NCBI GenBank assembly: GCA_964469935.1
Contig: CAYXZQ010000002.1
Span: 319 to 64,318, forward strand
Direction of reading: 5' to 3'
From: an uncultured Methanosarcinales archaeon
GTDB taxonomy: Archaea > Nanobdellota > Nanobdellia > Woesearchaeales > DSVV01
DNA length: 64,000 nucleotides
A program made the translations under genes and the position numbers. The notes beneath the pieces were generated by a model. That model ran no database searches. It worked only from the letters and a program-made list of their open reading frames with translations, and was not told where the DNA came from. Shown piece by piece: positions 27,391 to 62,532 of the stretch (position 1 is its first letter; each line of letters opens with the position of its first letter).

Positions 27391-27391
27391 T

Positions 27392-34100: not shown

Positions 34101-34452
34101 CCTGGGAGATATCTACGTTCTGGCCCTGGATGTTGATCTGTCCTGTCTGGAGTATCTGGCTGAACTGGTCATTGACTATCTGGTTCTTGTTGGTGTCGGG
34201 GAGATTAGGATACTGTGTGGAGACCTGGCTCTTTATTGTCGACTTGATATTGTTGTAGATGGTGTTCTGGGCCCACTGGTCCGTTATCGGCAGGTAAACC
34301 GGCATGGCCCTCAGGTAAATGCTCAGGATGATGGGGATCAGGATCAGTATTACTGTTATGGATTTCTTCATCAGGGCCTTGTTTGAGAAAAACCCTTTCA
34401 GCTTCTTCAGATCAAGGCTCAGTTCCTCTTCCTTCTCCTTACCCTTGGACAA
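31192..34452 (-). CDS. aglB: STT3/AglB-family oligosaccharyltransferase fused to a C-terminal parvulin-type peptidyl-prolyl isomerase domain (1086 aa).
   Basis: EL1 motif 'AIDPYYYYR' and 'SWWDFGHW' (WWDYG variant). A Ser/Thr/Gln-rich linker follows. The C-terminus 'EHILIS...LGWFGRGVMPKAFEDQVFSLQVGDVSKPFQTAYGYEIVKL' aligns with PpiC/parvulin. Confidence 0.8.
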   Translation of the reverse strand: MSKGKEKEEELSLDLKKLKGFFSNKALMKKSITVILILIPIILSIYLRAMPVYLPITDQWAQNTIYNNIKSTIKSQVSTQYPNLPDTNKNQIVNDQFSQILQTGQINIQGQNVDISQVISQNSEYFRSRFQNDYGHTYLLAIDPYYYYRMTEDVIDHGFEGDYQSPDGYYHDTKVLAGQPMGKGTDKRIVHFHVLVQYVMYRIAALFNPNVDLMYVVFFTPLIFGTLIIIPAFFITRRIAGDFGGFIAGVLIAIHPALLSRTIGGFSDTDAYNVFFPLMITWLLLEALNSRSRTKTIILAGLAAFCVGLFSFAWTAWYFIFDFVIVMLLGIIAYHGIMNRKAIFKNPKKMLSIERLKNALLITAAFFILSALFVTLIKSWGDFINFFQGTIGFTQLKQVGVQKIWPNVYTTVAELNPATLNSTISQISLGSKIWYFIALIGLVLPLGNLKSEKKDSLYFLAISAVWYLFIIIIQGAVKSQLLYAVLIFLPIAGYILYTMVVGTELDIRYSLILAIWFASTIYASSKGVRFILLLVPAYSIACGITAGIVTTEVSEWISKELTVNKIFAYGAIIAIFCALMFFPINIVSAAKTTALNEVPTMDDSWYSSLTKIKDQSKPDAIINSWWDFGHWFAAIGDRRVTLDGGRQNNPAAHWLGKLMLTWNETESVGILRYLDCGSNTGFDTLLPYMDNDSLKTIDTIYQIIVLDRASAKSVLLSKGLTDAQAEDVLQYTHCSPPEDYFITSEDMVGKSGVWAHFGAWNFTRAEQYNKVYNKNQIDGVSYLEDNFGLNSTAALSIYNQIKTTDPDQWIAPWPSYAGDLTACTVSDNTVSCSNGLQFDLSTEEASVQGTSLNVRAISFIDKYGQFRVKQYAGNYITSQDGRPLGAAIVESGGTYQSVLMDADLAGSMFTRLFYFEGAGLTHFDSFNNVRDITGAKIITWKVDWAGRNASVSQAPAVDTASSQTEQATTDTSQAVSPGNTTQDPIQEKTLAKVEHILISTSNRTDEQASALADKIYGMITPDNFDELAQQYSECSDETVRCNLGWFGRGVMPKAFEDQVFSLQVGDVSKPFQTAYGYEIVKLIDAK

Positions 34453-34635: not shown

Positions 34636-36411
34636 TTGCTGACTGAAACGAGCAAAGGGGTGACCATCTTGGTGAAGCATAAGAAGAAGAAGCATTCTGC
34701 CGGTAGATCAGCCTCAGAGAACACTGAGGGGCATGCAAATGCAAAAGAACATGCAAATGTTCATCCGGACAAAAGCCCGCACACCCACAGTGTGCACAAA
34801 AAAGAGCCTAAAAAAGCTCCAAACCCTTGGATATGGGTCGCAGCCGCTGTAGTCCTGATTCTCGCTGTATATGCGATATACAACATTGGTTCCGGGGAGA
34901 TAAAAGAGGACAATACAGGCAACACCGTCGCAACAGGGGCAGTGAATTTTGACCTCTATGTCATGAGCCAGTGCCCCTATGGCACACAGGTTGAGGATTC
35001 ACTCGCACCAGTCCTCAAGACGCTCGGAAACAACGTCGATTTAAGCCTGAACTACATTGCAAATGACAACGGTGACGGTTCTTTCACCAGCCTCCACGGG
35101 AATAATGAAGTGCTGGGCGACATAGTCCAGCTCTGTGCGCAGAAATACAATCCGGACAAGTACATGGATATGATTATATGCCAGAACAAGGACGCGAGTT
35201 CCATTCCTGGGAACTGGGAATCCTGCGCAACGGACAACGGGCTTGACGTCGACAAGATCAAGTCCTGCTACAAGGGAGATGAAGGCAAGCAGCTGCTGAG
35301 TGCAAGCATCAAGGAATCAGAGGACATCGGTGCTACAGGCAGCCCCACTATCTACATCAATAACAACAGCTATTCCGGTGCGAGGGGGCAGAACGATTTC
35401 ATGAGGGCGATATGCAACGCATACACGGGTACGAAGCCCTCGGCATGCGATGACATACCTGCTCCTGCTGAGGTCGACGTCATTGTCATAAATGACAAGC
35501 GGTGTTCAGAATGCGAAACCGGCATGACACAGCTTCTCGCCCAGCTCAAGAGCGTGTTCCCCGGCCTTAAAGTGACATCCTACGACTACAGCCAGCCCGA
35601 GGCAAAGACCCTCATGGCGCAGACAAATGTCAAGCTTCTGCCGGCCGTGCTGTTTGACGACAGCGTCACGAAGGACGAGAATTACGCCAATGTCGAGCAG
35701 TACTTGGTGCCCGCAGGCGATTACACTTCGCTCAGGATAGGTGCTGATTTCGACCCGTCAGCAGAGATATGCGACAATGGCATCGATGACACAGGCAACG
35801 GCCTCATCGATTGCCTGGATCCTGAATGCAACGGGACCATTGTCTGCAGGCAGGAGATTAAAGACGACCTGCAACTCTTCATAATGAGCGACTGCCCGTA
35901 CGGCAAGCAGGCTGTAATCGCCTTGAAGGATGTGATCGGAAATTTCGGAAGCGCTCTGAAATACGACATCCATTACATAGCAAGCGAGACGTCAAGCGGC
36001 TTTTCGAGCCTGCACGGCACCTATGAGGCTGACGAGGATATTGTCCAACTCTGCACAAAGAAGCATTCGCCGGACGTGTGGTTCGACTATGTCTACTGCA
36101 GGAGCGAGGAAGGCATCAAGGGGAATGACTGGCACAACTGCGCAGAGCAGACAGGCGTTGACATAGACGCAGTCGAGGCATGTATCAACGGCACCGAAGG
36201 TCCCTCTCTGCTGAGTCAGGACATAAAGATAGCTCAGGGGCTCTCGATCAGCGCTTCGCCCACATGGCTTGCGAACAACAAGTACATATTCAGCGGAATA
36301 GCTGCAGAGGCAGTCAAGTCGAGCTTCTGCAAGTACAACCCTGACCTCACAGGCTGCAACAACACGCTGTCATCGGCTTCAGGGACAGTTGCTTCAGGCG
36401 CGTGTGGCTAG
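34636..36411 (+). CDS. Membrane-anchored extracytoplasmic protein with a tandem-duplicated Cys-rich domain. Possibly a thiol-oxidoreductase-like fold.
   Basis: A His/Lys-rich N-terminus is followed by one TM helix. Two ~240-aa repeats each carry 'MS[QD]CPYG[TK]Q', 'SLHG...IVQLC' and 'W..C....G.D.D....C' motifs. The linker 'CDNGIDDTGNGLIDCLDPEC' looks like a Ca-binding DxDxDG motif. Confidence 0.5.
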   Translation: MLTETSKGVTILVKHKKKKHSAGRSASENTEGHANAKEHANVHPDKSPHTHSVHKKEPKKAPNPWIWVAAAVVLILAVYAIYNIGSGEIKEDNTGNTVATGAVNFDLYVMSQCPYGTQVEDSLAPVLKTLGNNVDLSLNYIANDNGDGSFTSLHGNNEVLGDIVQLCAQKYNPDKYMDMIICQNKDASSIPGNWESCATDNGLDVDKIKSCYKGDEGKQLLSASIKESEDIGATGSPTIYINNNSYSGARGQNDFMRAICNAYTGTKPSACDDIPAPAEVDVIVINDKRCSECETGMTQLLAQLKSVFPGLKVTSYDYSQPEAKTLMAQTNVKLLPAVLFDDSVTKDENYANVEQYLVPAGDYTSLRIGADFDPSAEICDNGIDDTGNGLIDCLDPECNGTIVCRQEIKDDLQLFIMSDCPYGKQAVIALKDVIGNFGSALKYDIHYIASETSSGFSSLHGTYEADEDIVQLCTKKHSPDVWFDYVYCRSEEGIKGNDWHNCAEQTGVDIDAVEACINGTEGPSLLSQDIKIAQGLSISASPTWLANNKYIFSGIAAEAVKSSFCKYNPDLTGCNNTLSSASGTVASGACG

Positions 36412-36485: not shown

Positions 36486-37472
36486 TTATTCTCTCCAGCT
36501 GACCTCGACCTCGTCAGTCCTCTCGTAAGGCCTTATCGCCAGGTCTTTGTCTGATTTCCCTTTCATGCATTTGTGCTTCAGGAGTCCCAGCCATGCAATC
36601 ATCGCGCCATTGTCGACAAGGAACTCATTTTTTGGGACAAGGCATTTCGCACCCCTGTCTTTGCACATTAGCTTAGCCATCTCCTGGAGGCGGATGTTGC
36701 ATGCCACACCTCCGCCCAGGAGGAGCTCCTTTTTGCCCGTATGCGCCATGGCCCTCTCGGAAACCTCGATAAGCATGGCAAAGACGGTCTCCTGGGCAGA
36801 ATAAGCCAGGTCTTCCTTCCTGAACCTCCCTGAACTTATCTTCTGTTTGAGGTTTGTCAGAAGCCCGCCGAACGAGGTATCCATGCCCTTGACAACGTAC
36901 GGCAGCTCGACGTACCTTTTCCCTTTGAGCCCGAGCTCGTATATCTTCGGCCCGCCGGGAAACCCGAGGCCGAGCTCCCTGGCAAATGAGTCAAGGAAAT
37001 TGCCGATCCCGATGTCCAGGGTCTCGCCGAATATCCTGTACCTCCTCCCTTCATATGCGATGACCTGGGTGTTTGCCCCTGAGACATAGAGAAGGACCGG
37101 GTCTTTTGCAGGGAAAAGCATGTTGCCTATCTCAAGATGGGCGATGCAGTGGTTGACCCCTACTATGGGCTTTTTGTGTATCGCATGGATCGACCTTGCT
37201 GCCATGGCGCCAATGCGGAGGGCATGTCCAAGCCCGGGCCCCTGGGAGAAAGATACCAGGTCGATGTCTGAGATTTTCATTCCTGCATCGGAAAGCGCAT
37301 CCTTTATGACGATATTGAATACATCCACATGGTGCTCTGAAACCCTGTTCGGTATCATGCCGCCTTTCTTGGTGGTATAGCTGTCCGTGACATTGGCAAG
37401 GACTTTCCCTTCGTCATCCACGATGCCTGCACCGAATGTGTGGGCTGTGGACTCGATCCCGAGGCAAATCAT
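36486..37472 (-). CDS. kae1: tRNA N6-adenosine threonylcarbamoyltransferase, archaeal Kae1 type.
   Basis: 'MICLGIESTAHTFGAGIV' is the archaeal Kae1 N-terminus with two His. 'SFSQGPGLGHALRIGA' is present. The start is taken at MICLG. The 64-aa upstream extension is rejected. Confidence 0.8.
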   Translation of the reverse strand: MICLGIESTAHTFGAGIVDDEGKVLANVTDSYTTKKGGMIPNRVSEHHVDVFNIVIKDALSDAGMKISDIDLVSFSQGPGLGHALRIGAMAARSIHAIHKKPIVGVNHCIAHLEIGNMLFPAKDPVLLYVSGANTQVIAYEGRRYRIFGETLDIGIGNFLDSFARELGLGFPGGPKIYELGLKGKRYVELPYVVKGMDTSFGGLLTNLKQKISSGRFRKEDLAYSAQETVFAMLIEVSERAMAHTGKKELLLGGGVACNIRLQEMAKLMCKDRGAKCLVPKNEFLVDNGAMIAWLGLLKHKCMKGKSDKDLAIRPYERTDEVEVSWRE

Positions 37473-37556
37473 TGTCGACTGGAAAAAACCGGAATTAAAA
37501 ACATTTTCGATGCACCATCCACAACCTTTATTAACTGTACAAGGATTACTGGACTT

Positions 37557-39473
37557 ATGGCAGACCCCGAGCTTGAGAACCTCAAAAAACAGATACTCGA
37601 ATATAACCCGAAGGCCGACATTGCGCTTGTCGAGAAGGCGTACAAGTACGCGAAGATAGCCCACGAGGGCCAGGTGAGGGAGTCAGGCGAGCCTTATTTC
37701 AACCATCCCATCGGGATTGCTAGGATACTCATAGGGCTCAAGGTTCAGTCGACGACGATATGCGGCGCGCTTCTCCATGACGTCGTCGAGGAATCGAAGG
37801 TCAGCCTCAAGAAGGTGAAGGACGAATTCGGCCCCGAGATAGCCTCTCTCGTTGAGGGCGTCACGAAGATAGACAAGGTCCATTTCGAGAGCAAGCAGGA
37901 CTACACAGCAGAGAATCTCAGGAAGGTGCTGCTCGCGACTGCAAAGGACATAAGGATAATGCTCATAAAGCTTGCCGACAGGCTGCACAACATGCGGACC
38001 CTTAAATCCCTGAGGGAGGACAAGCAGAAGAGGATTGCAGAGGAGACCCTGAACATATATGCGCCCATAGCCCATAAGCTTGGCGTCTGGCACATAAAAG
38101 GAGAGCTTGAGGACCTCTCGCTCCGGTACCTTGACCCCGAGGCGTACCAGATGCTCAGGGACAGGATAAACGAGAAGCGCGAAGAGCGCGAAAAGAAGAC
38201 AAAGGAGTTCATAAGGACCATAAAGAAGAAGCTCAGGGCCCATGACATCGAGGCAGAGGTCAACGGCAGGGCCAAGTACTTCTACAGCATATACAAGAAG
38301 ATGAAGAAGAAGAACGTGGACTTCAGCGAGATATACGACCTGATTGCCATAAGGATAATAACAAAGAGCATCCCTGACTGCTATGCCGCCCTGGGCATAC
38401 TCCACGACACCTGGAAGCCCATTCCCAAGAAATTCAAGGACTACATAGCCACCCCCAAGGCGAACGGCTACCAGAGCCTGCACACAGCGCTTGTCGGGAG
38501 CCACGGCAAGATACTCGAGGTGCAGATAAGGACAGAGGAGATGCACCAGATCGCAGAGGATGGAATCGCGGCTCACTGGAGGTACAAGGGCACAGAGAGG
38601 GACAAGCAGTTCGACAGGAAGATATCATGGATAAAGCAGGTGCTCGACTGGAGGCAGTCGGCAAAGGATGCAGAGGATTTCATGGAGACCCTCAAGATTG
38701 ACCTCTTCGAGAAGGAGATAATAGTATTCACGCCCAAGGGCGACCCGATATCCCTGCCGGAGCACTCGACTCCCGTGGATTTCGCATATGAGATTCATAC
38801 GAACATCGGCAACCACTGCTCAAAGGCGCTGGTGAACGAGAAGCTGGTCACGCTTGACACAGAGCTCATGCCAGGCGATGTCATCGAGATAGTTACGATG
38901 AAGAATGCAAAGCCATCGAGGCAGTGGCTCAAGTTCGTCAAGACCAGCAAGGCCAAGGGCAAGATAAGGGCCATACTGAACATCGAGAAGGAGCATGACC
39001 CGAAGACCAGGAAGGAGGAGGAGCTCCCTGAAAATCGGGCGAAGATGATAGATATCATCGGCAAGGACGTGCCGATAAAGATATCCAAATGCTGCGATCC
39101 CAGGCCGTATGATTATATCGAGGGATTTTATACAAAAGACGGGAAGATAACTGTCCACAAGAAAGGCTGTCCCAATGTCCATTCCCTTGACCAGAACAAG
39201 AAGGCTGTCGTTCACTGGAAAAAGGAATCAGGGGACAGGTTCAAGGAATTCAAGATCATTGCTCAGGATAGGGTGGGGATGATAGCTGAAATACTCAACT
39301 TCCTCGTCGCCTTAAAGCTCAATGTGGAGAAGCTCAACACCAGCACGACAAAGCATGGCAGGTTCATGCTGAACCTGGGAGTCTCTTTGGATAAGGAAGA
39401 GACAGTTGCCGAACTCATAGCAAAGCTCAAGGAGATAAAGGGCGTCTTCGATGTCATGGAGTTCAAGGGCTAG
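37557..39473 (+). CDS. Full-length RelA/SpoT homolog with HD hydrolase, (p)ppGpp synthetase, TGS and ACT domains.
   Basis: HD domain: 'HEGQVRESGEPYFNHPIGIA...LLHDVVE'. Synthetase: 'FYSIYKKM...DLIAIRII...DCYAALGILHDTWKPIPKKFKDYIATPKANGYQSLHT...EVQIRTEEMH...AAHWRYK'. TGS: 'IIVFTPKGDPISLPEHSTPVDFAYEIHT'. There is a C-terminal ACT-like 'IIAQDRVGMIAEI'. Start MADPELENL. Confidence 0.8.
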   Translation: MADPELENLKKQILEYNPKADIALVEKAYKYAKIAHEGQVRESGEPYFNHPIGIARILIGLKVQSTTICGALLHDVVEESKVSLKKVKDEFGPEIASLVEGVTKIDKVHFESKQDYTAENLRKVLLATAKDIRIMLIKLADRLHNMRTLKSLREDKQKRIAEETLNIYAPIAHKLGVWHIKGELEDLSLRYLDPEAYQMLRDRINEKREEREKKTKEFIRTIKKKLRAHDIEAEVNGRAKYFYSIYKKMKKKNVDFSEIYDLIAIRIITKSIPDCYAALGILHDTWKPIPKKFKDYIATPKANGYQSLHTALVGSHGKILEVQIRTEEMHQIAEDGIAAHWRYKGTERDKQFDRKISWIKQVLDWRQSAKDAEDFMETLKIDLFEKEIIVFTPKGDPISLPEHSTPVDFAYEIHTNIGNHCSKALVNEKLVTLDTELMPGDVIEIVTMKNAKPSRQWLKFVKTSKAKGKIRAILNIEKEHDPKTRKEEELPENRAKMIDIIGKDVPIKISKCCDPRPYDYIEGFYTKDGKITVHKKGCPNVHSLDQNKKAVVHWKKESGDRFKEFKIIAQDRVGMIAEILNFLVALKLNVEKLNTSTTKHGRFMLNLGVSLDKEETVAELIAKLKEIKGVFDVMEFKG

Positions 39474-44576: not shown

Positions 44577-46508
44577 CTAGAATCCGGGCGGTGAGTTGCC
44601 GTCGTCGCGTTTTTGAGGGGCCTGGGGCATCCTTTGCTGGAGTTTCCTGTGTATCCTGCTGGTTATGACCAGGTTGGAGATGTTGACGACGATGAGGAAC
44701 AGTATGACTGCAAGGTATATTATCTCGTTCGAATGGCTTCTTATGCCCGATATTATGGTTATGATGGGCGATGTGAATGCGCCGTCGACCTTGAGCGGGT
44801 CTAAACCCACGATGTATAGGTCAGTGACCCTGTATGGGCCTGTGCCGTTGACCTTGTACGAGAGGTCCCAGCTGTAGTTTGCAGGCGCTGTGGCGTCAGG
44901 CCCGAACTTCGGCCCGAGGGACGAGTTCATGGTCCCTTTCCATTGTATGTCCCACCTGTAGGACATGCCGTAATAGTCGCTTCCCGGGCTCCCGACCGAA
45001 AGGTTCGAGCAGCCGCTCCCTCCAAGTGCGCACGAGTAGTAAGATGGTGACATGTTCCAGATTCCGAAGTCGTTCGGGACAAAGTCGTACACAGTCACCT
45101 TCTCGAACTGCGGGGTCCAGCCGTTTCCGATATTCTCGACGTGTATCTTGACCTGGTACTGGTCCTCTCCTATGTTGGTTATGTTCTTGGCGATCTGGAG
45201 CCAGTAGCCGTGGACGACGTAGATGTACTTGAGGTATGTGTCATTGCCGCTGACGCTCATTGTGTAGTTTACGATCTGGCCGGACATGTCGGAAATCAGG
45301 TATTCCGGTTTCATCCAGACGATGGGCGGCGGATACGCCGAGCTTGAGCCGTCTGTGTAGTTGAATGTCCATACGTAGCTGGAGTTCCCCCATGGCTTTG
45401 TTATGTTTATCTCCTGGAGCGGCGAGCCTGTGAAATTTTTTCCCAAGAGCCCCCATAGGGTCCCGGCAGTCGTGTTTGTCGGGTCCTGGTTCTGCGTGAC
45501 CCATAGCGAAACCTTGTTGAGATTATAGGATATGTTCACGGGGACTGTCACCCTCGGCGTGATCTCCCAGGTCACATTATGGTTCTGCTCGTTGTCGCTC
45601 GGCTTGATTATCCGCTTGTCGAAGTCGAAATCGACCTGGGAGCTGGCGTTTATGTCGTCTATCGTCAGGTTCGAGAGCAGGGTGTTGACCACCAGGAATT
45701 CAACCCTCTCTTTGAGGGCAAGGTATGTGGCAGTGAACGGGACGCTCAGCGGAGCGGTCATATTGTACCTGATGCTTGTGTTCCTGTGCCATGCAATCGT
45801 CCCGCCGCTGGGTGCCCACCACCAGGAGACATTGGATGTCCCGTTCCCATGGACATTGGCAAAATCCTTGTATGGATACAGGTTATTGAGATAGAAGCTG
45901 AACTGTGTCGAATTCCATACCACGTCTGCGGCAGTCATCGAGATGTTTATGTTCGTTACGCTTACGTTTATCTGGTTGTCGTTTCTCACAGTCTGGTTGA
46001 TTGTCCATTCATGGCCTGAAAGCACCTTCCTGTCGAAACCGTGCTCGAAATTATAGTAGTTAGTTATGACGTTCACAGGCGGGTCGACGCCCATGCACGA
46101 TATATTGTACCTGAATAATGAATTATCGCCCTGTCTCAGTTCAGGTACAAACAGTATTATCTCTGTTCCTGGCTGGCCTGATGTCTGGTTGCCGAACTTT
46201 GTAGTGTTGTCCCAGGTGAAGTTTGTCGAAAGTCCGCCTGTGTTCCTGAATGACACATGTATGTCATAAATTGTCTCATTGTTCGGGTTTGTGATGTTCA
46301 CTGTTCCAAGGCTGTAGCACGATTTCTGCCATTCAGTGAGCGTGAAGTTCTCTGCAAAGCTTGTCTGCTGGAAGACCTGTTCTGTGATGGAGACATTGAT
46401 GTGAGTGCCGAAATCCGCGCTCACGTTGAAGAAGCACATGATGAAGAAGAGTATGGAGCAAAAGAATAGAACGAGCCTGCCCTTATTCCTCTTTTTTAGG
46501 GGATTCAT
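44577..46508 (-). CDS. S-layer-like surface glycoprotein candidate with a signal peptide, about 34 N-glycosylation sequons and a C-terminal TM anchor with a basic tail.
   Basis: N-terminal 'LVLFFCSILFFIMCFFNVSA'. N-x-S/T motifs counted by eye, for example 'NFTWDNTTKFGNQTSG' and 'NVSVTNINISMT'. C-terminal 'IIYLAVILFLIVVNISNLVI' followed by 'RIHRKLQQR'. A TATA-rich region lies upstream at 46509-46594. Confidence 0.6.
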   Translation of the reverse strand: MNPLKKRNKGRLVLFFCSILFFIMCFFNVSADFGTHINVSITEQVFQQTSFAENFTLTEWQKSCYSLGTVNITNPNNETIYDIHVSFRNTGGLSTNFTWDNTTKFGNQTSGQPGTEIILFVPELRQGDNSLFRYNISCMGVDPPVNVITNYYNFEHGFDRKVLSGHEWTINQTVRNDNQINVSVTNINISMTAADVVWNSTQFSFYLNNLYPYKDFANVHGNGTSNVSWWWAPSGGTIAWHRNTSIRYNMTAPLSVPFTATYLALKERVEFLVVNTLLSNLTIDDINASSQVDFDFDKRIIKPSDNEQNHNVTWEITPRVTVPVNISYNLNKVSLWVTQNQDPTNTTAGTLWGLLGKNFTGSPLQEINITKPWGNSSYVWTFNYTDGSSSAYPPPIVWMKPEYLISDMSGQIVNYTMSVSGNDTYLKYIYVVHGYWLQIAKNITNIGEDQYQVKIHVENIGNGWTPQFEKVTVYDFVPNDFGIWNMSPSYYSCALGGSGCSNLSVGSPGSDYYGMSYRWDIQWKGTMNSSLGPKFGPDATAPANYSWDLSYKVNGTGPYRVTDLYIVGLDPLKVDGAFTSPIITIISGIRSHSNEIIYLAVILFLIVVNISNLVITSRIHRKLQQRMPQAPQKRDDGNSPPGF

Positions 46509-46594: not shown

Positions 46595-46936
46595 TCAGCT
46601 GATTCCAACCAAATCCCCTGTTTTCGATTTGGAACCTGATATTACGCCCTTTCTGGCTTCGATTACGTATTTTGCCTTGTTTTTCGACGTGTAGAAAGTA
46701 AACGGCAGGAAATTCTCCTTTAAGTCGACTATCTTCTTATCCCTGTCCAGGAAGATGACATCGATGGGAAAGAACACGAAGAACATGTGAAGGGATATTC
46801 TCCTCTCCTTCTCGAATATGAACAGGAGGCTCTTTTTGGGCGAGAACATGAGCCCCCTTGCCTTCTCGGGAACGCTCCTGCATTCGGTGAATTCCCCTGC
46901 GATGAGCTTTCCGCTTGTCAGATTCATTATCGCCAT
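46595..46936 (-). CDS. DUF192-family small protein.
   Basis: 113 aa. 'GLMF...LLFIF......ISLHM.FV.FPIDVIFLDRDKKIV' matches the COG1430/DUF192 pattern. Confidence 0.5.
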   Translation of the reverse strand: MAIMNLTSGKLIAGEFTECRSVPEKARGLMFSPKKSLLFIFEKERRISLHMFFVFFPIDVIFLDRDKKIVDLKENFLPFTFYTSKNKAKYVIEARKGVISGSKSKTGDLVGIS

Positions 46937-49383
46937 TTTACCAGGTAGGCGACTGTCCTCAGGGTCTCAGGTCGCGAATTGTCGGCGATGAGCCTGAAAT
47001 CATCAAGGCCATAGCCGTCGAGGACCATCAGCCTTATGTACGTGCTGTCAGCGATGTTCTTGTCGACCACGATCGCGTTGTATTTGTCGCTTCTTGGATA
47101 GATAACCATCGTGTATTCTGACTTGCTGTCATAGCTGAACCTGGTCAGGTTCCCGTCGATGAAGAACCAGAGCCCTGCCAGGTCGACATTGTTATGTCCC
47201 GTCCTAGAGTTGGCAGTGACTTGCGTGCTCCCGACACTGCATGTGAACGTATCATTATCCCTGCTGCAGTCGTAGGCTGTGAAGGCCTTGTAGGTCTTCT
47301 GCTCGTCGCTCGGCAGGTCGAAATCCCAGTATGCGTACTCCTGAACAGTATGGAAGCGGGTGAACATGTCGTCTGTCAGCGCGATATAGGTGACAGGGGC
47401 ATCACAGTGGGTGTATCTGGTGATCCGCCTGTCCTGATTGTTCTGGGCCAGGTATTCGTCAGCCTCTGTCTTGTTGAGCTTCAGGATGCTGTCAAGTACG
47501 CCAATCTTCCCGTTCATCGAGAGGTTGCCCTTCACAAGGCTGAGCGCCTTCTTCTCGCCGTTGCATGAAAGCATCCGGATGATGCCTGCGGAAAGGTTCT
47601 CGTCCGGTGTCATCAGGGCCTTGGCCATCCAGTAGGTCCTTGGCATGCTCGGAGCTGCCTTGAGAAGGACGTCCCTGTCAGACAATGCATAGAAGAAATG
47701 GCCTTTGTCCCACCAGGTGAATATCTTGGCATCAGGAGGGCTTACCTCCCCTATCTTCACGGCAGTGTTGTACAATGAGTCGTCCATCCTGGGCTTGATG
47801 CTCCTGACCGAGCTGTAGTCGGCCATGAACTGGCTCCCGATTATGAAGAGCAGAAGGGCTATGACCAGCACATAGGCAAGCGACCTGATGATGGTGTCCT
47901 TCTGGTCTATCCAATGGATGAATCTCGGTATCGAGTCAATTATCAAAAAAAGGCCGAACCCGAAAAGTATGCATATGTATGGGATGGAGAAAGGGAATAT
48001 CCTTATCGCCTTGAAAGCGGCGGGTATCATGATTGCTGCCGCTGTCAGTGCGAGCAATGGGCCGAAGGGTATGTCCTCCGAATCCGCAGCCCTCCAGAAT
48101 GTATAGGCAGCAGCCAGGAGCACTATCGCCAAAAATACCGGCCCTCCGAGCCTCGGGACCATGTCGCTGAAAGGGAGAGGCTGGAGCTCTGAGATTGATG
48201 AATAGCTGTCCGGCCATACCCCCTGCAGGCTGCCAGAGCCAAGATAAAGCTGTATCTTGGCAGGCATGAAGCCTATGAGAAACTTGAGTCCCAGCAGCAC
48301 TGCGATGACGATTATCAGGCAGACCAACACAAGATAAGCGATGCGCCCATTCGTTGTCTTGTCGGCTGTCAGCTTATTGAAGAGCCAGAGGCCGAGATAG
48401 ACAGCTGAGATGGCAGCAAGCAGGCCTATGACTATGTAATACCCTGTCCACGTGAACCTGAAGAGGAGAAGGAGCAGGACCAGTGATGCCCCTGCTATAA
48501 TCCTGTTCCTCAGCTTTTTCTGGAGAATCAGTTCAAGGAACACCCACGATATCGCGAGCATGAAGAATATGTTGATGGTATTGGTATCGCTCATCCCTGC
48601 AAGGCTGTACTTGAGGAATTCAGGGTGTATGGCAAAGGTTGCGGATGCGATTAAGCCTGCCAGGTCTCCTGCAATCCTCCTTGCAATGAAATATATAGGG
48701 AACATGGTCAATGCCACGAATATCAGCGGGATGTAGAAGCTTGTCGTCATCATTGACACGGTTTTGTTGAAAAGGGAGATGAAATTATGGAAGTAATACT
48801 CGAAGAAAGACAGGAAATCCTCGAGTTTCCCGTCCTTTGCGTTCTTGTAGTAGCTGTAGGGGTCTATGCCGTAGAGGTATATCTGCCCCTGCGGATCCCT
48901 GAAGCTGTCCCTGAGGCTTTCGGCCTTCTGGGCGATCTGCGCCTGGTACTGGTCTATCTTTTCCTTGACCTGCTGGTCTATGAGCTTGGTCTTCTGGTCA
49001 TCGCTGTAATAGGGGTACATCTGGTTGACGTCCTGTGTTATCTGCGGCCTGAATGTGGCGTCGGCAGACATCCTAGCCCAGTCATCCATGAGCGGGAGGC
49101 CTGCGTAATGCAGCCTTACGCCTACTGAGAGGATGATGGACAGGATGATGAAGATGACAGGGGCATATCTCCTGAACCAGGCAGGTGTCTTGAAGGCCTT
49201 GTGGTCTTCCCTTGCCTTCTTCTTTTTTGGACTGCGGGAATGTCTCTTCTTCACCTTCGGCTTTGGCTTCGGCTTATTCATCGCCTTTGACGCAATCTCC
49301 TGCTGCTTCTTCCTTATCATGTCTGCGCGCAGCTCGTTGCTGATGTCTGTGTCCCCTATGTTGTCCATGGGAAATGAAATCAT
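46927..49383 (-). CDS. aglB: Second STT3/AglB-family oligosaccharyltransferase paralog (818 aa) with a Lys/Pro-rich cytoplasmic N-terminus.
   Basis: EL1 'YGIDPYSYYK'. 'TWWDKGHFF' is a WWDYG variant. 13 or more TM helices plus a C-terminal soluble domain. The N-terminus reads 'KPKPKPKVKKRHSRSPKKKKARED'. Confidence 0.75.
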   Translation of the reverse strand: MISFPMDNIGDTDISNELRADMIRKKQQEIASKAMNKPKPKPKVKKRHSRSPKKKKAREDHKAFKTPAWFRRYAPVIFIILSIILSVGVRLHYAGLPLMDDWARMSADATFRPQITQDVNQMYPYYSDDQKTKLIDQQVKEKIDQYQAQIAQKAESLRDSFRDPQGQIYLYGIDPYSYYKNAKDGKLEDFLSFFEYYFHNFISLFNKTVSMMTTSFYIPLIFVALTMFPIYFIARRIAGDLAGLIASATFAIHPEFLKYSLAGMSDTNTINIFFMLAISWVFLELILQKKLRNRIIAGASLVLLLLLFRFTWTGYYIVIGLLAAISAVYLGLWLFNKLTADKTTNGRIAYLVLVCLIIVIAVLLGLKFLIGFMPAKIQLYLGSGSLQGVWPDSYSSISELQPLPFSDMVPRLGGPVFLAIVLLAAAYTFWRAADSEDIPFGPLLALTAAAIMIPAAFKAIRIFPFSIPYICILFGFGLFLIIDSIPRFIHWIDQKDTIIRSLAYVLVIALLLFIIGSQFMADYSSVRSIKPRMDDSLYNTAVKIGEVSPPDAKIFTWWDKGHFFYALSDRDVLLKAAPSMPRTYWMAKALMTPDENLSAGIIRMLSCNGEKKALSLVKGNLSMNGKIGVLDSILKLNKTEADEYLAQNNQDRRITRYTHCDAPVTYIALTDDMFTRFHTVQEYAYWDFDLPSDEQKTYKAFTAYDCSRDNDTFTCSVGSTQVTANSRTGHNNVDLAGLWFFIDGNLTRFSYDSKSEYTMVIYPRSDKYNAIVVDKNIADSTYIRLMVLDGYGLDDFRLIADNSRPETLRTVAYLVKWR

Positions 49384-49474: not shown

Positions 49475-50107
49475 ATGGATGCAATAATAATCGCAGGCGG
49501 CAAGGGGACGAGGCTCGGCGGCAATATCCCCAAAGCCCTTGTGGAGGTCAAAGGAAAGCCCCTGGTGGCCCACCAGATAGATTACCTCCTGCAGTCCGGG
49601 ATTGTCGACAGGTTCATCCTGGCTCTCGGACATAAGTCAGAGATTGTAATGGAATTTGTCAAGAAAAGATATCCAGATGAAAAAATAATTTTTTCAGTCG
49701 AGGAGCAGCCTCTTGGTACAGGTGGAGGGGTAAAAAAGGCGATGAAGCTGGCCAGATCAGATTATGTCATTGCCCTCAATTGTGACGACGTGACCGATAT
49801 CGACGTAAAAAAGCTCGCTGCCATGGGTGAGAACACCATATGCGTCGCACACCCCAGGCTCATATTCGGCCTCGTGATAGAGAAGGACGGATATGCCATA
49901 TTTAACGAGAAGCCCGAGATCAAGGACTGGGTGAACTGCGGATGGTATCTCCTTGACAGGGTTGAGATGCTCAGGATCCTCCCGGACAAGGGAAGCCTGG
50001 AGATTGATGTGTTTCCGAACATCAGGATGAGGGTCTTCAGGCACGAGGGTTTCTGGAAGACCGTGAATACCCAGAAGGACATCGACGAGTTCGACAAAAC
50101 TATCTGA
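49475..50107 (+). CDS. Sugar-1-phosphate nucleotidylyltransferase (NDP-sugar pyrophosphorylase, short form).
   Basis: 'AIIIAGGKGTRLG' is the G-x-G-T-R nucleotidyltransferase motif. It is 210 aa. A TATA-like 'atatatttaaatg' lies upstream. Confidence 0.7.
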   Translation: MDAIIIAGGKGTRLGGNIPKALVEVKGKPLVAHQIDYLLQSGIVDRFILALGHKSEIVMEFVKKRYPDEKIIFSVEEQPLGTGGGVKKAMKLARSDYVIALNCDDVTDIDVKKLAAMGENTICVAHPRLIFGLVIEKDGYAIFNEKPEIKDWVNCGWYLLDRVEMLRILPDKGSLEIDVFPNIRMRVFRHEGFWKTVNTQKDIDEFDKTI

Positions 50108-50698
50108 TCAGCCGAGTTTCAGGCTTTCCAGAAGGTGTCTAGCGCATGTCTCAGCGTCGTCCTTGCCTGAATCAAGGATCATTTCTGGACTCTTGGGTTC
50201 CTCATAAGGTGCGCTGACCCCTGTGAAATCCTTGATCTTTCCTTGTTTTGCCTTCTTGTACATCCCTTTAGAATCCCTCTTCTCGCATTCCTCTACAGGG
50301 CATCTAACATAAATCTCGATAAAGTCATCCCCAATAAGCCCTCTTGCTTTCAGTCGGTCTCTTTCATACGGGCTTATGAAGCAGACCAGCACGAAAATGC
50401 CTGCATCATGAAGAATCCTCGCGACCTCCCCTATCCTCCTTATGTTCTCTTCCCTGTCTTTTGGACTGAACCCGAGTTCCGAATTGAGGCCATGCCTGAT
50501 GTTGTCGCCGTCAAGTATGTAGGTTGGAAGGGCGGCATCATGCATCTTCTTCTCAGCCAGGGCTGCAATCGTGGACTTGCCTGAGCCAGAGAGGCCTGTG
50601 AACCACAGGACCTTGTTTTTCCTTCCGCCGAGAAGCCTTGTCCTGTCCTCTCTTGAGACGAGTCCTCTGTGCCATACAATATTTTTTGATGCCATCAT
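50108..50698 (-). CDS. cysC: Adenylyl-sulfate (APS) kinase.
   Basis: 'VLWFTGLSGSGKSTIA' (P-loop) and 'LDGDNIRHGLN', 'FISPY' are canonical APS kinase motifs. Confidence 0.9.
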   Translation of the reverse strand: MMASKNIVWHRGLVSREDRTRLLGGRKNKVLWFTGLSGSGKSTIAALAEKKMHDAALPTYILDGDNIRHGLNSELGFSPKDREENIRRIGEVARILHDAGIFVLVCFISPYERDRLKARGLIGDDFIEIYVRCPVEECEKRDSKGMYKKAKQGKIKDFTGVSAPYEEPKSPEMILDSGKDDAETCARHLLESLKLG

Positions 50699-50776
50699 GT
50701 CAAGGGTTCACGGAACCTATAGGGTTTATCCGTGCATTTCCGGAACTGCGAGAGCTGTACTGCTGATATCGATCTT

Positions 50777-51571
50777 TTAGCCATTTTTTATTATCTCCAG
50801 GAGCTCATTATGATTCCTGTTGTTGGATGCCAGAAATCCGCTCTTCTTCAATGGGTTTTCCTGGTTGTATATCAATTCTTTTCCATCAAGGTCAGTCATC
50901 CTGCCCCCTGCCTCCTTTATGATGATGTCCATCGCGCATATGTCCCATTCATTGACAGGCCCGAGCCTTGGGTAGAGGTCTGCCTCCCCTTTTGCGACCA
51001 GGCATCCCTTGACAGAGCTTCCTGTCACAACTGCCTCCCTGAACCTTTTCATTAGTTTCCTGAGCTTTTCCGATTGATGTGACCTGCTCACGGCTATCTC
51101 CATGTATTTCGGGTCTGAGGTCGACGATACCTTTATTCCCTGGTCCTGGTAGAATGAGCCTTTTCCCTCAGTAGCATAATAAAGCTCGTCTGTCACCGGG
51201 ACATAGATGACTCCGATGATTGGTCTTCCGTCCTGGACAAGCGCGATGTTGACTGTGAACTCGCCGTTCTTCTTGATGAATTCCTTGGTGCCGTCGAGCG
51301 GGTCGATGATCCACACCATGCTGCTATCCTGCCTCTTCTTGTCATCCTTGCCTTCTTCGGTGAGGATGGGGATGTCCGGGAAACTTTCCTTGAGACCTAT
51401 GACAATCACACTGTTGGCAGCCAGGTCAGCCCTTGTCAGCGGGCTTGTGTTCCCTTCCTGGTCCTTTTTCTCAGTGATGTCGAAATCTTCTGAGTTGTAG
51501 ATTTCGAGAATCTTTTCCCCGGCCATGATGACAAGCTCTTTTGCATTCTCCAGCATTGATGAGATGTCCAT
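50777..51571 (-). CDS. cysQ: 3'(2'),5'-bisphosphate nucleotidase / inositol monophosphatase family (CysQ-like PAP phosphatase).
   Basis: 'WIIDPLDGTKEF' (DPxDGT), 'EEGK' and 'GGRMTDLDG' are IMPase-fold metal-site motifs. Confidence 0.75.
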   Translation of the reverse strand: MDISSMLENAKELVIMAGEKILEIYNSEDFDITEKKDQEGNTSPLTRADLAANSVIVIGLKESFPDIPILTEEGKDDKKRQDSSMVWIIDPLDGTKEFIKKNGEFTVNIALVQDGRPIIGVIYVPVTDELYYATEGKGSFYQDQGIKVSSTSDPKYMEIAVSRSHQSEKLRKLMKRFREAVVTGSSVKGCLVAKGEADLYPRLGPVNEWDICAMDIIIKEAGGRMTDLDGKELIYNQENPLKKSGFLASNNRNHNELLEIIKNG

Positions 51572-51899
51572 ATTCCCATAGATTGCAGGGGATTTTATAT
51601 AATTAATGATTGTCCAGCCTATAGGATATCAAAGGCGACGGGAATTTCCAGGTAGGTCATCTTGCGCCTCAGTAATCAGCCTTTTCCGTTCTTGCCGATT
51701 TTCCAGATTTAACTTTGTCATATAGCACGGAACAACACATTTTAAATATTAGTTCTACACCCTCTGCCTTATTTTAGAGTCACTGCATAGTAAAGAAAAT
51801 GTTCTGGACAGGTGACGCATAGTATAGATTCCGACTTGAGAACCTAATTTAATAATAACATTTATATATTAATATATTAATTACTATAAAGGTATCAAA

Positions 51900-54485
51900 A
51901 TGTCTATTGACGAAGAAGTGAACAGAGAGATTGGAATACTCAGGAAGCTTAAAGATAGGCTTGCGAATACAAAAACAGGAAAAGTCCTTTCAGCGCTCTC
52001 TGTTTTCTGGGCAACTTACACTTTTTCGCCCGGAAGTGTCCAGGAGCTCGTTTCAGTCCTCAATAACAGGATAAACATCACGGACTTTATAGGTTTCATG
52101 CCGGCTGCCAGGGCGCAGGACTTCAGCTTTGCCTGCGACCCAAACAATGAGCCTGACCTGTGGGGCTATAAGATATTCTATGGCAACCACAATGGAGGAC
52201 CATATGATGGGGCAGGAGGTTCAGAGAGCGATTCGCCTGTAGAATTTCCGCTGTCCGGTCTGCCTGACCCGAATAATCCGACATTCCAGATCCACGGACT
52301 TTCAAGCACAAAGAACTGGTATTTTGTCGCAGTTGCGCGTGACATATACGGCAATATAAGCAATTTTTCGAACCAGCTGCAGTGGCTGGGTGGTTCTGCG
52401 GACACGACTCCACCTGTAGTATCAGCCGATGCATTCTCAAGATACGTATCGGGCTCAGTCTTCAGGCGGACAGGGGACATCACGGACGATGTGGAGCTCG
52501 ATGACCCCGAGACACTGGAATTCTGGCTGCAGAAAGATGATGAAGCTGCTTTGGACATCACTGACCAGGTGAATGTGACTGTCGTGAATAACAGCCATTA
52601 TGCTTTCGACACAGGAAATATCACTGTGGGCGAAGGTGATTTTACTCTCACGATCAAGGCCTGGGACTATGAGGGGAACCAGGCTGTATACAGCGATTCC
52701 CAGACCCTCATCGAGAACCCGCCGGTTATCCTTTCAGATGACATGACCGGCGGTTTTTCAGGAGGGACGCTGAATCTTGATATCCCGTTTGAAGGTGTAG
52801 GTGTCTCAGAGGGTCACGCGGTTGTCGGAGGAAGGACTCTGGACCTGGTAATGGGAGACGGAGTCCTGCAGTTCGCAAATCCCATGCTGGTGTCTGATAT
52901 TGCAGAACATTACGGCGCATTGGATATCTCTCTTCACCTGACAAACGGGCTGGGCTCAGAGTTCACCAAGCACGGAGAGATCATCTTCGAATCCGAGACA
53001 GGCTCTCTCAGGCAGTCGCTCCAGAATCCCGTATCCCTGGATTCGATGGACAATTACCTGCTGTGGAACAACAATTATCCGCAGCTTTTCGGCGTCTCGC
53101 AGGACACGGCTGATTTCGTGGAAGGCAGTTCCAGCATGAAGGTGGATTATGCTTACGATCCATCTTACAGCAAAAGATATCTCTGGCGCTGGGTTGACAG
53201 CGGGAAGAGGGACTGGTCGGCAAAGAATGTAATGGACGTCTGGATAAGATCTGACAAGGATGCACGCATCGGCCTTATGGCCAGGAACTCCGGCTCATAC
53301 ACATCTATCAAGTGGATCGACGTTTCCGTAGGCTCCGGGGATTATGCAGTCGACATAAGCGACTGGAGCAGGGAGGACGTGGACAAGCTATATATCAAGT
53401 TCGACGGCCGTGAAGGTTATGACTACCAGATGAGCATCGACGACATCGTGCTGGCCGATGCTATTGTAAATCAATCCTCTGCCCAGAATATCCTAAACAA
53501 GGTCCAGCTGGATTCGATGGACAATTACCTGCTGTGGAACAACATATATCCCCAGCTTTTCGGGGTCTCGTTGGACACGGCTGAATTCGTGGAAGGCAGC
53601 TCCAGCATGAAGGTGGATTATACATACGACCCCTCGTACAACCAGAGATACCTCTGGCGCTGGATAGACAGCGGGAAGAGGGACTGGTCGGCAAAGAATG
53701 TCATGAGCATGTGGGTGAATTCCGACAGGGATGCGCGCATCGGCCTGATGGCCAGGAACTCCGGCTCATACACCTCGATCAGGTGGATCGATGTCAAGAG
53801 CGGCTCAGGCAGATATGTCGTCGACATAAGCGACTGGAGCAGGGCGGATGTGGACAAGCTCTACCTGAAGTTCGACGGCCGTGAAGGATATGACTACCAG
53901 ATGAGCATCGACGACATCTCCCTTGGTGACGGGTTACACGAGACAGGAGGAGGGCTTTTCGACTGGAAGACTCTGGACTCGATGGACAGTCTCCTGGCCT
54001 ATCTGAACAGATACCCTGAATTGTTCCAGCTTTCTGTTGATACTGCGAACAAGGTAGAGGGCTCAGGCAGCCTGAAAGTGGACTTCAGCTACAATCCTTC
54101 ATATTCTCCTGAGAGATACATCCACCGGCCTGTCGATTCAGGGGACCAGGACGAGTCGCAGTACAATGTAATGAGGCTTTGGACAATGGGGACGTTCGCC
54201 CAAGCAGGCCAGGCAGCGCAGATAGGGATAATGGCTCGGAATGCCGGGTCTTATACAGGAATACAGTGGTTTGACGTGGCCTCAGGCAAAAAATGGCAGA
54301 CCATGGACATAAGTCAGATGCCGAGGGACCTTTGGCAGTACCTTTATTTCAAGTTCAAGGGCGATGAAGGCTACGATTACCAGGTGAATCTCGACAGCCT
54401 GCAGCTGGTCGACACCAAAGGGGAGAAGAACGTGTACTTTTCTGATTCCAAGAATTCTGCACTTGTCATCAGATGGGATGACTGA
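51900..54485 (+). CDS. Large secreted or surface protein (861 aa) with an FN3-like N-terminal region and three tandem ~145-aa beta-sandwich/CBM-like repeats.
   Basis: The repeat unit reads 'LDSMDNYLLWNN.YPQLFGVS.DTA.FVEGSSSMKVDY.YDPSY..RYLWRW.DSGKRDWSAKNVM..W..SD.DARIGLMARNSGSYTSI.WIDV..GSG.Y.VDISDWSR.DVDKLY.KFDGREGYDYQMSIDDI'. It occurs three times. Confidence 0.5.
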   Translation: MSIDEEVNREIGILRKLKDRLANTKTGKVLSALSVFWATYTFSPGSVQELVSVLNNRINITDFIGFMPAARAQDFSFACDPNNEPDLWGYKIFYGNHNGGPYDGAGGSESDSPVEFPLSGLPDPNNPTFQIHGLSSTKNWYFVAVARDIYGNISNFSNQLQWLGGSADTTPPVVSADAFSRYVSGSVFRRTGDITDDVELDDPETLEFWLQKDDEAALDITDQVNVTVVNNSHYAFDTGNITVGEGDFTLTIKAWDYEGNQAVYSDSQTLIENPPVILSDDMTGGFSGGTLNLDIPFEGVGVSEGHAVVGGRTLDLVMGDGVLQFANPMLVSDIAEHYGALDISLHLTNGLGSEFTKHGEIIFESETGSLRQSLQNPVSLDSMDNYLLWNNNYPQLFGVSQDTADFVEGSSSMKVDYAYDPSYSKRYLWRWVDSGKRDWSAKNVMDVWIRSDKDARIGLMARNSGSYTSIKWIDVSVGSGDYAVDISDWSREDVDKLYIKFDGREGYDYQMSIDDIVLADAIVNQSSAQNILNKVQLDSMDNYLLWNNIYPQLFGVSLDTAEFVEGSSSMKVDYTYDPSYNQRYLWRWIDSGKRDWSAKNVMSMWVNSDRDARIGLMARNSGSYTSIRWIDVKSGSGRYVVDISDWSRADVDKLYLKFDGREGYDYQMSIDDISLGDGLHETGGGLFDWKTLDSMDSLLAYLNRYPELFQLSVDTANKVEGSGSLKVDFSYNPSYSPERYIHRPVDSGDQDESQYNVMRLWTMGTFAQAGQAAQIGIMARNAGSYTGIQWFDVASGKKWQTMDISQMPRDLWQYLYFKFKGDEGYDYQVNLDSLQLVDTKGEKNVYFSDSKNSALVIRWDD
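53020..54420 (+). repeat. Three in-frame tandem repeats of about 430-470 nt inside the CDS. Copies 1 and 2 are far more alike at the nucleotide level than either is to copy 3.
   Basis: For example, 'ctggattcgatggacaattacctgctgtggaacaac' occurs at 53038 and 53511. Long identical runs are seen through 'gactggtcggcaaagaatgt' and 'gcgactggagcagggcggatgtggacaagct'. Confidence 0.7.
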
Positions 54486-61407: not shown

Positions 61408-62532
61408 TCACAATCCCGGGCACTCTCTGCATACTTTCGGGGCGTTCGTAAGCAGCCGCTTCCTGAATCTCTTCAGTTTTTTTCCGTTCCATACCTCCTG
61501 GAAGGGCTGCTTGAGGATGTTGCCGTAGGAATATCCTTCACCTTCGTGGGAAAAGTCGCAGTGGCTCGAGACATTGCCGACCCAGTCTTCCCTGGGTAAC
61601 TTGTCGTTCGGAAGGTTTATCATCAGCTTCCACCACATTGTCGAGCAGTTGACCCTCTTCCTTCCTTTCGGCGGGAACCTGGGAGGGAAGACCCTCAGGC
61701 CGAGGGATCTCCCATATGCTACGGCCTCGTCAATCGACTTTATCAGCTCATGGTCCGTCTCCTGTATCACGTTGTCCTTTGAGCATATGGGGTGGTCTAC
61801 GAAATCTACAGGCACAAGGTATGAGAATATGACGTCGTCAGCCCCTATCTCCTTGCACGTGTCCATCAGGTCCTTGTACGTGTGGACATTGGACCTCATC
61901 GCTATGCAGTATATCCCTATCTTGAATCTTCTCTTGTACTTCTTGCGTAGCACGCTAAGCTTCTTGATGTTTCCGATTATCGTCTCCCATTTAGCGCCCC
62001 TGCGTATCTCTTCGAACTCTTTCGGGTCGCCGCTGTCAAGGTTCGTGTTCAGCCTGTTTATGCCGCTCTTTGCGAGGTGCTCCAGATTTTTCGTGACCTG
62101 CCGGTTCATGTTTGTCATGATCGAGCAGGTCATTTTGCTTTTCCTGACGTACTCTATCATGTCGAATATGTCCTTGTTGAGGAGAGGGTCCCCTGTCCCG
62201 CAGAGATGGACATGGGCGATCTTGGTCTTCTTCAGTTCGTCCAAGATCCTTTCAAAATCAGCCAGGGACAGCCTCATGGGCCAGTACGGCCTCTCTGTGA
62301 ATGGAGAATGCCAGAGGCAGTAGATGCATTTCTGCGTACACACGCTCTCAGTCACTATCGTTACGTATGTCGGGTCCCAGGGCACCTGGGTTATGTTCCT
62401 GTTTCTCATGAGCATGTATTTGACAGCGTTTGCGACCTGGCCTAAAGAATGCTCCCTGATGAATTTGATTCCTTCCTGGACGACATAGACATCCGTGTGT
62501 ATGGATGATTTGATATTGAACAGCCTAACCAT
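61408..62532 (-). CDS. Radical SAM enzyme with a C-terminal Cys-rich (SPASM/twitch-like) region.
   Basis: 'CTQKCIYC' (Cx3Cx2C). 'HLCGTGDPLL'. The C-terminus has additional Cys: 'RVNCSTMWW...SSHCDF...KVCRECPG'. Confidence 0.7.
   Translation of the reverse strand: MVRLFNIKSSIHTDVYVVQEGIKFIREHSLGQVANAVKYMLMRNRNITQVPWDPTYVTIVTESVCTQKCIYCLWHSPFTERPYWPMRLSLADFERILDELKKTKIAHVHLCGTGDPLLNKDIFDMIEYVRKSKMTCSIMTNMNRQVTKNLEHLAKSGINRLNTNLDSGDPKEFEEIRRGAKWETIIGNIKKLSVLRKKYKRRFKIGIYCIAMRSNVHTYKDLMDTCKEIGADDVIFSYLVPVDFVDHPICSKDNVIQETDHELIKSIDEAVAYGRSLGLRVFPPRFPPKGRKRVNCSTMWWKLMINLPNDKLPREDWVGNVSSHCDFSHEGEGYSYGNILKQPFQEVWNGKKLKRFRKRLLTNAPKVCRECPGL

Follow-up and report, generated by a model that had tools for sequence, protein, structure and literature searches.

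A cysC–cysQ gene pair beside aglB in a woesearchaeal contig: probable PAPS-supplying core of a glycoconjugate sulfation module without a local sulfotransferase or sulfate activator

In several bacteria the genes that supply 3'-phosphoadenosine 5'-phosphosulfate (PAPS) are clustered with a sulfotransferase gene, as in nodPQ–nodH of Rhizobium, raxPQ–raxST of Xanthomonas and cysDNC–stf0 of Mycobacterium. Here we describe a comparable setting in 64,000 nt, nearly the entire length, of the 64.5-kb contig CAYXZQ010000002.1 from an uncultured archaeon of the Woesearchaeales lineage (hereafter the window, which comprises the ∼64 kb of this genome that were visible and to which all absences reported below refer). 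In this stretch a gene for adenosine 5'-phosphosulfate (APS) kinase, cysC, and a gene for a phosphatase of 3'-phosphoadenosine 5'-phosphate (PAP), cysQ, lie close to aglB-2, which encodes an oligosaccharyltransferase. We consider it probable that the pair forms the PAPS-making and PAP-clearing core of an aglB-2-linked glycoconjugate sulfation module, the sulfotransferase and sulfate activator of which are encoded off-locus. The likeness to the bacterial clusters is found in relatives of this locus, where sulfate-activation and APS kinase genes stand beside a PAPS-dependent sulfotransferase and glycan genes, and where a degenerate APS-kinase-like domain may be fused to the activator, as in the CysN-APSK proteins of two related loci, L001 and L065. 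The differences are the archaeal, DPANN-like host, the linkage to aglB and a sequon-rich surface protein, the inclusion of cysQ and, for the window itself, the lack of both an activating enzyme and a sulfotransferase. PAPS-supply genes clustered with glycan genes are already known, and the setting here is an archaeal and aglB-linked one; the more novel items are a minimal sulfotransferase and a fusion of a nicotinamide mononucleotide adenylyltransferase (NMNAT)-like domain with an APS kinase domain, both of which are found in the relatives.

Three further systems invite comparison. Bifunctional PAPS synthases combine ATP sulfurylase and APS kinase (Sat-APSK in Aquifex and Thiobacillus, APSK-Sat in animals), and fungal ATP sulfurylase carries a regulatory APSK-like domain. 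In the 304-aa fusion protein of the relatives an adenylyltransferase-type domain is likewise joined to an APS-kinase domain, with both orders occurring, and, as a further likeness, a real cysC stands downstream of those fusions in which the kinase is likely to be inactive. It differs in that its nucleotidyltransferase domain has only ∼130 residues and is NMNAT/PPAT-like and not a canonical Sat, in that its sulfurylase role is a predicted one, and in that its gene is not in the window. Methanothermococcus thermolithotrophicus provides an archaeal stand-alone APS kinase (PDB 8a8h), to which the window CysC aligned with an E-value of 3e-32. In the assimilatory pathway of this organism the kinase is reportedly followed by PAPS reductase and sulfite reductase, with a PAP phosphatase other than CysQ, whereas the window has CysQ, no reductases and a glycosylation context. 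Finally, in Halobacterium salinarum N-glycans are sulfated at the lipid-linked stage, before transfer to surface glycoproteins, and Agl30/VNG1056C and Agl31/VNG1057C, which possess a sulfatase/alkaline-phosphatase fold, are encoded in the aglB cluster (PMC11980604). The placement of sulfation genes in an aglB-anchored cluster is thereby shared; however, no PAPS-synthesis genes are described for that cluster (PMC11980604), whilst the sulfotransferases in the relatives of our locus are P-loop-type Sulfotransfer_1/3 proteins accompanied by an explicit PAPS module, and the window has no sulfatase-fold protein.

The first of the two genes, cysC (50108–50698, minus strand), encodes a protein of 196 aa that matched Pfam APS_kinase (PF01583) with an E-value of 1.7e-63 (213.6 bits) and exceeded the thresholds of two NCBIfam models, NF003013 (255 bits; cut-off 163) and TIGR00455 (238 bits; cut-off 138.7). 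It aligned end to end with the APS-kinase domain of human PAPSS1 (E-value 4.5e-53), and in this alignment the P-loop GLSGSGKST, LDGDNIRHGLN, DREENIRR, FISPY and the lid KGMYKKAKQGKIKDFTGV were all kept; as such, every signature of the family (P-loop GxxGxGKS/T, LDGDNxR, DRxENxRR, FISP and the KGxYKKA..G.I..FTG lid) is present and all catalytic motifs are intact. Stand-alone CysC proteins from Woesearchaeota metagenome-assembled genomes (MAGs) were 62–66 % identical to it. The second gene, cysQ (50777–51571, minus strand), encodes a protein of 264 aa that matched Pfam Inositol_P (E-value 2.3e-62) and reached 243 bits on the TIGR01331 bisphos_cysQ equivalog model (cut-off 228.8), whilst its scores on the rival HisN (152.7 bits), FBPase/IMPase (114 bits) and SuhB (91 bits) models each fell far under their own cut-offs. 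Its best solved relative was the CysQ structure 3b8b (E-value 3.7e-47), compared with 1e-29 or weaker for inositol monophosphatases. The metal-binding motifs of the IMPase superfamily (DPxDGT and WD) are intact as DPLDGTKEF and EWD, and WIIDPLDGTKEF and NEWDICAMD align to 3b8b. For both proteins the nearest homologs (56–69 % identity) were found in Candidatus Woesearchaeota and Pacearchaeota MAGs and in metagenome contigs. Judged by these comparisons, the two products are a bona fide APS kinase, predicted to catalyse APS + ATP → PAPS + ADP, and a bona fide CysQ 3'(2'),5'-bisphosphate nucleotidase, the predicted PAP phosphatase. These are ordinary genes that a preliminary description of this DNA had identified correctly, with exact coordinates, and both now stand above curated NCBIfam cut-offs.

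The genomic context of the pair is conserved in related loci. The closest relative found, L068, is a JGI contig on which the gene order matches that of the window across nine genes, with a sulfotransferase gene and the fusion gene as two extras. Its order runs from DUF4330 and a Sulfotransfer_1 gene (184 aa, minus strand), divergent from cysQ, through cysQ, the 304-aa fusion and cysC (plus strand) to a nucleotidyltransferase (NTase) gene (210 aa, minus strand), and then to STT3, DUF192 and an AF2028_C surface protein gene (plus strand), followed by the gene for a 722-aa protein. Identities between the window and L068 were 69 % for cysQ, 63 % for cysC, 66 % for the NTase, 50 % for STT3 (AglB-2 in the window), 63 % for DUF192 and 73 % for a 643-aa surface protein, and 40 % between the window's 738-aa protein and its 722-aa homolog. 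The order cysQ–fusion–cysC–STT3–DUF192–AF2028_C was seen on two further JGI contigs, and in L003 the order is STT3–x–Sulfotransfer_1–cysQ–fusion–cysC. A second operon type, cysQ–cysD–cysN/APSK–cysC, was present in L001 and L065 (APSK being the degenerate domain mentioned above), within glycan clusters that hold Sulfotransfer_1/3 genes. A cysQ–X–cysC operon headed by cysQ was thus found in L001, L003, L005, L006, L007, L065, L068, L069, L070 and L072. In L066 a sulfotransferase gene shares the glycan cluster with cysC, but no sulfurylase gene occurs within 10 kb of the latter; this locus is a precedent for cysC alone in such a cluster. On the basis of these gene orders, the putative sulfation module is repeatedly linked to aglB.

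As the bacterial cys regulon classically includes CysC and CysQ, the pair could alternatively serve assimilatory sulfate reduction, in which PAPS passes to CysH and then to sulfite reductase; a cysH/cysIJ operon was also what the preliminary description had named as speaking against glycan sulfation. Neither cysH nor sir nor cysIJ was detected in the window, nor in the flanking annotation of the nine related loci that were inspected for them. The PAPS_reduct matches in those flanks corresponded only to CysD, encoded directly upstream of CysN, and the neighbours of cysC and cysQ in the relatives were always glycan, oligosaccharyltransferase or sulfotransferase genes. Because of this synteny, together with the absence of cysH and sulfite reductase, we assign the pair to a sulfation module and not to an assimilation operon, and consider an assimilatory role extremely improbable.

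The sulfotransferase of L068 and L003 is only 184–186 aa long, matches Sulfotransfer_1 and Sulfotransfer_3 and carries GCPRSGTS and RD..E...S motifs. The fusion belongs to a family of ∼300-aa proteins encoded in L068 (4025–4939), L003 (9062–9976), L005 (9093–10004), L006 (3919–4833) and L007 (2892–3806) and also in L069–L108. In its 304-aa form it consists of the ∼130-residue N-terminal nucleotidyltransferase domain, with GRxxPFHxGH and ISATEIR motifs, and a C-terminal APS-kinase-like domain. Its N-terminal domain is NMNAT/PPAT-like (HxGH...ISxTxxR), matching an archaeal NMN adenylyltransferase (PDB 1ej2, E-value 1.5e-4) and NCBIfam NMNAT models. Approximately 40 fusions were recovered in a metagenome scan, four of them with the reversed domain order. 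The close copies, which have LD[GS][SK]x in place of the kinase motif LDGDN and are followed by a genuine cysC, are likely to possess an inactive kinase domain; in distant fusions GLSGSGKST and LDGD are both unaltered, and no separate cysC lies in the vicinity. Since the fusion holds the slot that cysD and cysN-APSK fill in sister operons, its small domain is a candidate non-canonical, minimal ATP sulfurylase, belonging to a family of the relatives and not of the window. A literature search for NMNAT-like/APS-kinase fusions or for DPANN sulfation returned nothing specific, although PF03567 sulfotransferases of Woesearchaeota and Pacearchaeota have been remarked upon as uncharacterised (PMC11625862). 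The fusion family is therefore apparently undescribed, and would represent a new class of minimal ATP sulfurylase or PAPS synthase.

Neither function could be traced in the window. A Pfam scan of all 54 plausible window genes (many of which were also compared with NCBIfam) gave no sulfotransferase, Sat, CysD/N, CysH or sulfatase, and BLASTP and tblastn searches with DPANN sulfotransferases, CysD, CysN and the fusion protein yielded no window match. A hidden Markov model (HMM) built from five DPANN sulfotransferases, which found seven more sulfotransferase-like open reading frames (ORFs) in related loci, reached a best E-value of only 6.9 over 599 window ORFs, and a motif search located the 5'-phosphosulfate-binding (5'-PSB) loop in no real window gene. 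The earlier statement that the window holds no recognisable sulfotransferase or ATP sulfurylase is borne out by all of these methods. Of the elements of a complete PAPS-dependent glycan sulfation cluster, the window has the glycan context, with AglB-2, an NTase, GT2, GT4 and a sequon-rich surface protein adjoining cysC and cysQ, but lacks ATP sulfurylase and sulfotransferase.

The places that the two genes occupy in the relatives are readily identified. Between cysQ and cysC there is a spacer of 78 nt (50699–50776) with no gene in the window, where relatives carry the 304-aa fusion gene or cysD and cysN-APSK; the N-terminal domain of the fusion was not found in the window by tblastn. On the 5' side of cysQ, L068 and L003 have the divergent gene for the 184–186-aa Sulfotransfer_1 protein, whilst the window has the gene for an 861-aa repeat protein (51900–54485, plus strand), separated from cysQ by an intergenic region (51572–51899). 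With this gene at the sulfotransferase position of the relatives, a rearrangement breakpoint immediately adjoins cysQ on its upstream side. The product of the gene combines an N-terminal anchor with three internal ∼140-aa repeats (LDSMDNYLLWNN.YPQLFGVS...MARNSGSYTSI.WIDV) and matched no Pfam or NCBIfam model. No remnants of sulfotransferase or fusion genes were detectable in the 78-nt and 328-nt intergenic regions, by tblastn or by reading of the sequence, and the window as a whole is gene-dense, with a longest unassigned gap of 358 nt. A TATA-like element, TTATATAAAA, is retained ∼20–30 nt before the ATG of cysQ.

Convergent with cysC, on its other side, lies the gene for a GlmU/RmlA-type sugar-1-phosphate nucleotidyltransferase of 210 aa (49475–50107, plus strand; Pfam NTP_transf_3 and NTP_transferase; top NCBIfam match HddC, under cut-off). 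It had been left out when the pair was earlier placed between AglB-2 and the repeat protein, a placement that otherwise holds for cysC and cysQ. We considered this NTase as a stand-in for the missing sulfate activator and rejected it: because the NTase at the same position in L068, with 66 % identity, co-occurs with the fusion gene, it is a member of the ancestral block and no substitute for a sulfurylase.

The genes that follow point to the destination of the glycan. AglB-2 (46927–49383, minus strand; Pfam STT3, E-value 6.4e-16) has the motif WWDKG at residue 557. A DUF192 (COG1430) gene (46595–46936, minus strand; Pfam DUF192, E-value 5.2e-17) overlaps the aglB-2 stop codon by 10 nt, and the aglB–DUF192 pair is kept in three related contigs; this conserved pairing suggests a functional partnership with the oligosaccharyltransferase. 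Next comes the gene for the membrane-anchored, 643-aa surface protein (44577–46508, minus strand), which has 35 N-x-S/T sequons; its density of 5.4 per 100 aa is >12 times the median of 0.43 for the window. The AF2028_C family was not recognised in it by the Pfam copy used, and it is assigned to this family by homology to the L068 protein, the gene for which comes after aglB and DUF192 in relatives. Given its 35 sequons and the WWDKG motif of AglB-2, the surface protein is most likely the final acceptor of the glycan that AglB-2 transfers.

From these data the following pathway can be proposed. Sulfate would be converted to APS by CysDN or by the fusion of a small NMNAT-like adenylyltransferase with an APS-kinase-like domain, and APS to PAPS by CysC. 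A small, soluble, PAPS-dependent sulfotransferase would then act on a sugar at the cytoplasmic face, most likely that of a lipid-linked glycan, and the inhibitory PAP would be cleared by CysQ. After flipping, AglB-2 would move the glycan onto the sequon-rich surface protein encoded just downstream. As PAPS is cytoplasmic and the sulfotransferases of the relatives are small and soluble, sulfation would be expected on the lipid-linked glycan prior to flipping, as in Halobacterium salinarum (PMC11980604). The locus in the window would have lost its sulfotransferase and sulfate-activating genes, with both functions supplied by copies elsewhere in the genome. The preliminary description had likewise proposed sulfation of a glycan or envelope component, which the conserved synteny of the relatives supports; its suggestion that the sulfotransferase may be of a novel family is not supported, since the relatives use sulfotransferases of canonical type.

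Several observations weigh against this proposal. Neither a sulfotransferase nor any sulfate-activating enzyme lies within the ∼64-kb window, and the sulfation pathway may be broken here. Adjacency to aglB is no proof of an N-glycan acceptor, as the adjacency is just as compatible with a lipid or another polysaccharide. Furthermore, L067 (ENA ERZ25039495 contig_49020, 1.84 Mb and possibly complete), which is colinear with ∼7000–29300 of the window over a cluster for a pseudaminic/legionaminic (Pse/Leg)-type glycan, contributes no protein to the best 120 CysC or the best 120 CysQ matches, the extent of our homolog lists; this relative may therefore be without the PAPS module, which suggests that the module is dispensable. 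These points also bear on the possibility that the locus is a decaying remnant in which sulfotransferase and activator were lost altogether, cysC and cysQ being leftovers that have yet to degrade or serving PAP housekeeping, with nothing sulfated. It is precisely the two partner genes of the closest relative that are absent, with no tblastn trace, a breakpoint adjoins cysQ, and partial pathways are common in DPANN genomes. Nevertheless, both ORFs are full length with every catalytic motif intact and HMM scores above curated cut-offs, cysQ has kept its TATA-like element, and the absence concerns only 64 kb of the genome. Taken together, we regard a remnant as the foremost alternative, but an unlikely one.

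The lack of a canonical sulfotransferase might instead mean that a non-canonical one is encoded in the window, for which the preliminary description had put forward the product of 16570–17517 and a DUF362-like protein. In favour of such an enzyme is also the precedent of the archaeal N-glycan sulfotransferases Agl30 and Agl31 with their sulfatase fold (PMC11980604). No window gene, however, has a sulfatase/alkaline-phosphatase Pfam domain of the Agl30/Agl31 type, and neither of the two candidates withstood closer analysis. The 16570–17517 gene (minus strand) is predicted to encode an HD phosphohydrolase resembling Mesh1 and other small alarmone hydrolases (SAH): a confident AF2 model shows the SAH/Mesh1 HD-hydrolase fold with a complete metal site (H102, H131-D132 and D222), and not the alpha/beta, P-loop-like fold with 5'-PSB and 3'-phosphate-binding (3'-PB) motifs that typifies a sulfotransferase. 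It had only two close homologs, and an exhaustive search extended these to 18 relatives, in which R87, H102 and H131 are invariant and D222 nearly so; its profile matched, with 92 % probability, the SpoT hydrolase domain of the RelA/SpoT protein that the window itself encodes, and PDB 9chy appeared in the structural comparison of the model. The DUF362 protein (26320–27441, minus strand; Pfam DUF362, E-value 5.5e-26) gave an hhalign probability of 0.07 % against the sulfotransferase profile, and its homolog in L067 adjoins GtrA and GT2 genes with no link to cysC or cysQ. A 185-aa HD-like protein (23774–24331) remained below 0.2 % in the same comparison. In no relative locus does any of these candidates accompany cysC and cysQ, the relatives use recognisable Sulfotransfer_1/3 proteins, and all other unassigned window proteins are membrane or extracellular proteins, located where PAPS is not available. 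A novel sulfotransferase within the window is consequently very improbable.

A further alternative is that PAPS and PAP serve another use, such as a sulfated lipid, a small molecule or a 3'-phosphonucleotide circuit involving the Mesh1-like hydrolase. Human MESH1 has recently been reported to be a PAPS phosphatase, as cited in PMC12934728, and by analogy a PAPS link of the hydrolase on the same island is conceivable; the sulfate acceptor, moreover, is still a candidate only. On the other hand, the hydrolase gene sits 33 kb from cysC and cysQ in the pseudaminic/legionaminic-type (nonulosonic-acid) cluster, and it is conserved in L067 (∼62 % identity, one protein compared), the contig absent from the best 120 CysC and CysQ matches. 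The window's long RelA/SpoT protein makes (p)ppGpp a more obvious substrate, and the tight synteny of cysC and cysQ with aglB favours a glycoprotein target; such other uses therefore seem distinctly unlikely. The broader notion that PAPS chemistry proceeds or is regulated here without a canonical activator and sulfotransferase, be it with APS that a host provides, through a transferase that escaped recognition or in a circuit where the Mesh1-like hydrolase acts on PAPS, with a new fusion family in the relatives as a separate element, is in our estimate unlikely as a whole, the fusion family being better supported than the Mesh1 or host-APS routes.

Elsewhere in the window, the gene for the long RelA/SpoT homolog (37440–39473, plus strand) specifies HD_4, RelA_SpoT, TGS and ACT domains and scored 704 bits on TIGR00691 (cut-off 499). 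Such a full-length protein stands on a contig that otherwise looks like that of a DPANN archaeon, and long RSH proteins are unusual in archaea. As its called start overlaps a Kae1/TsaD gene on the opposite strand, the true start is probably later. A second oligosaccharyltransferase, AglB-1 (STT3; 31192–34452, minus strand), has WWDFG at residue 625 and a C-terminal PPIC/parvulin-type domain (residues ∼987–1085), and thus fuses an oligosaccharyltransferase to a foldase (peptidyl-prolyl isomerase). The gene adjoining it (34636–36411, plus strand) encodes 591 aa that include a pair of GILT/DsbA-type thioredoxin-like domains, and its product may be an extracytoplasmic thiol-disulfide oxidoreductase. 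A radical SAM/SPASM protein (61408–62532) was considered as an anaerobic sulfatase-maturating enzyme, which would have pointed to a transferase of sulfatase fold, and rejected, as it gave only sub-threshold matches to generic SPASM maturase models of NCBIfam, the top one, a tungsten-cofactor oxidoreductase maturase, likewise lying below cut-off.

Sulfated N-glycans are known in a few cultivated archaea, but no account has been given of how the sulfate donor is supplied or of the genetic linkage of this route with the oligosaccharyltransferase. The related loci present a compact and portable module of cysQ, a sulfate activator, cysC, a small sulfotransferase, aglB, DUF192 and a surface glycoprotein, of which the window is a natural variant without sulfotransferase and activator; the missing neighbour sulfotransferase probably reflects a change in gene order and not a new enzyme family. 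From the module, sulfated surface glycans are predicted for uncultivated members of the DPANN archaea, the surfaces of which mediate attachment to their hosts.

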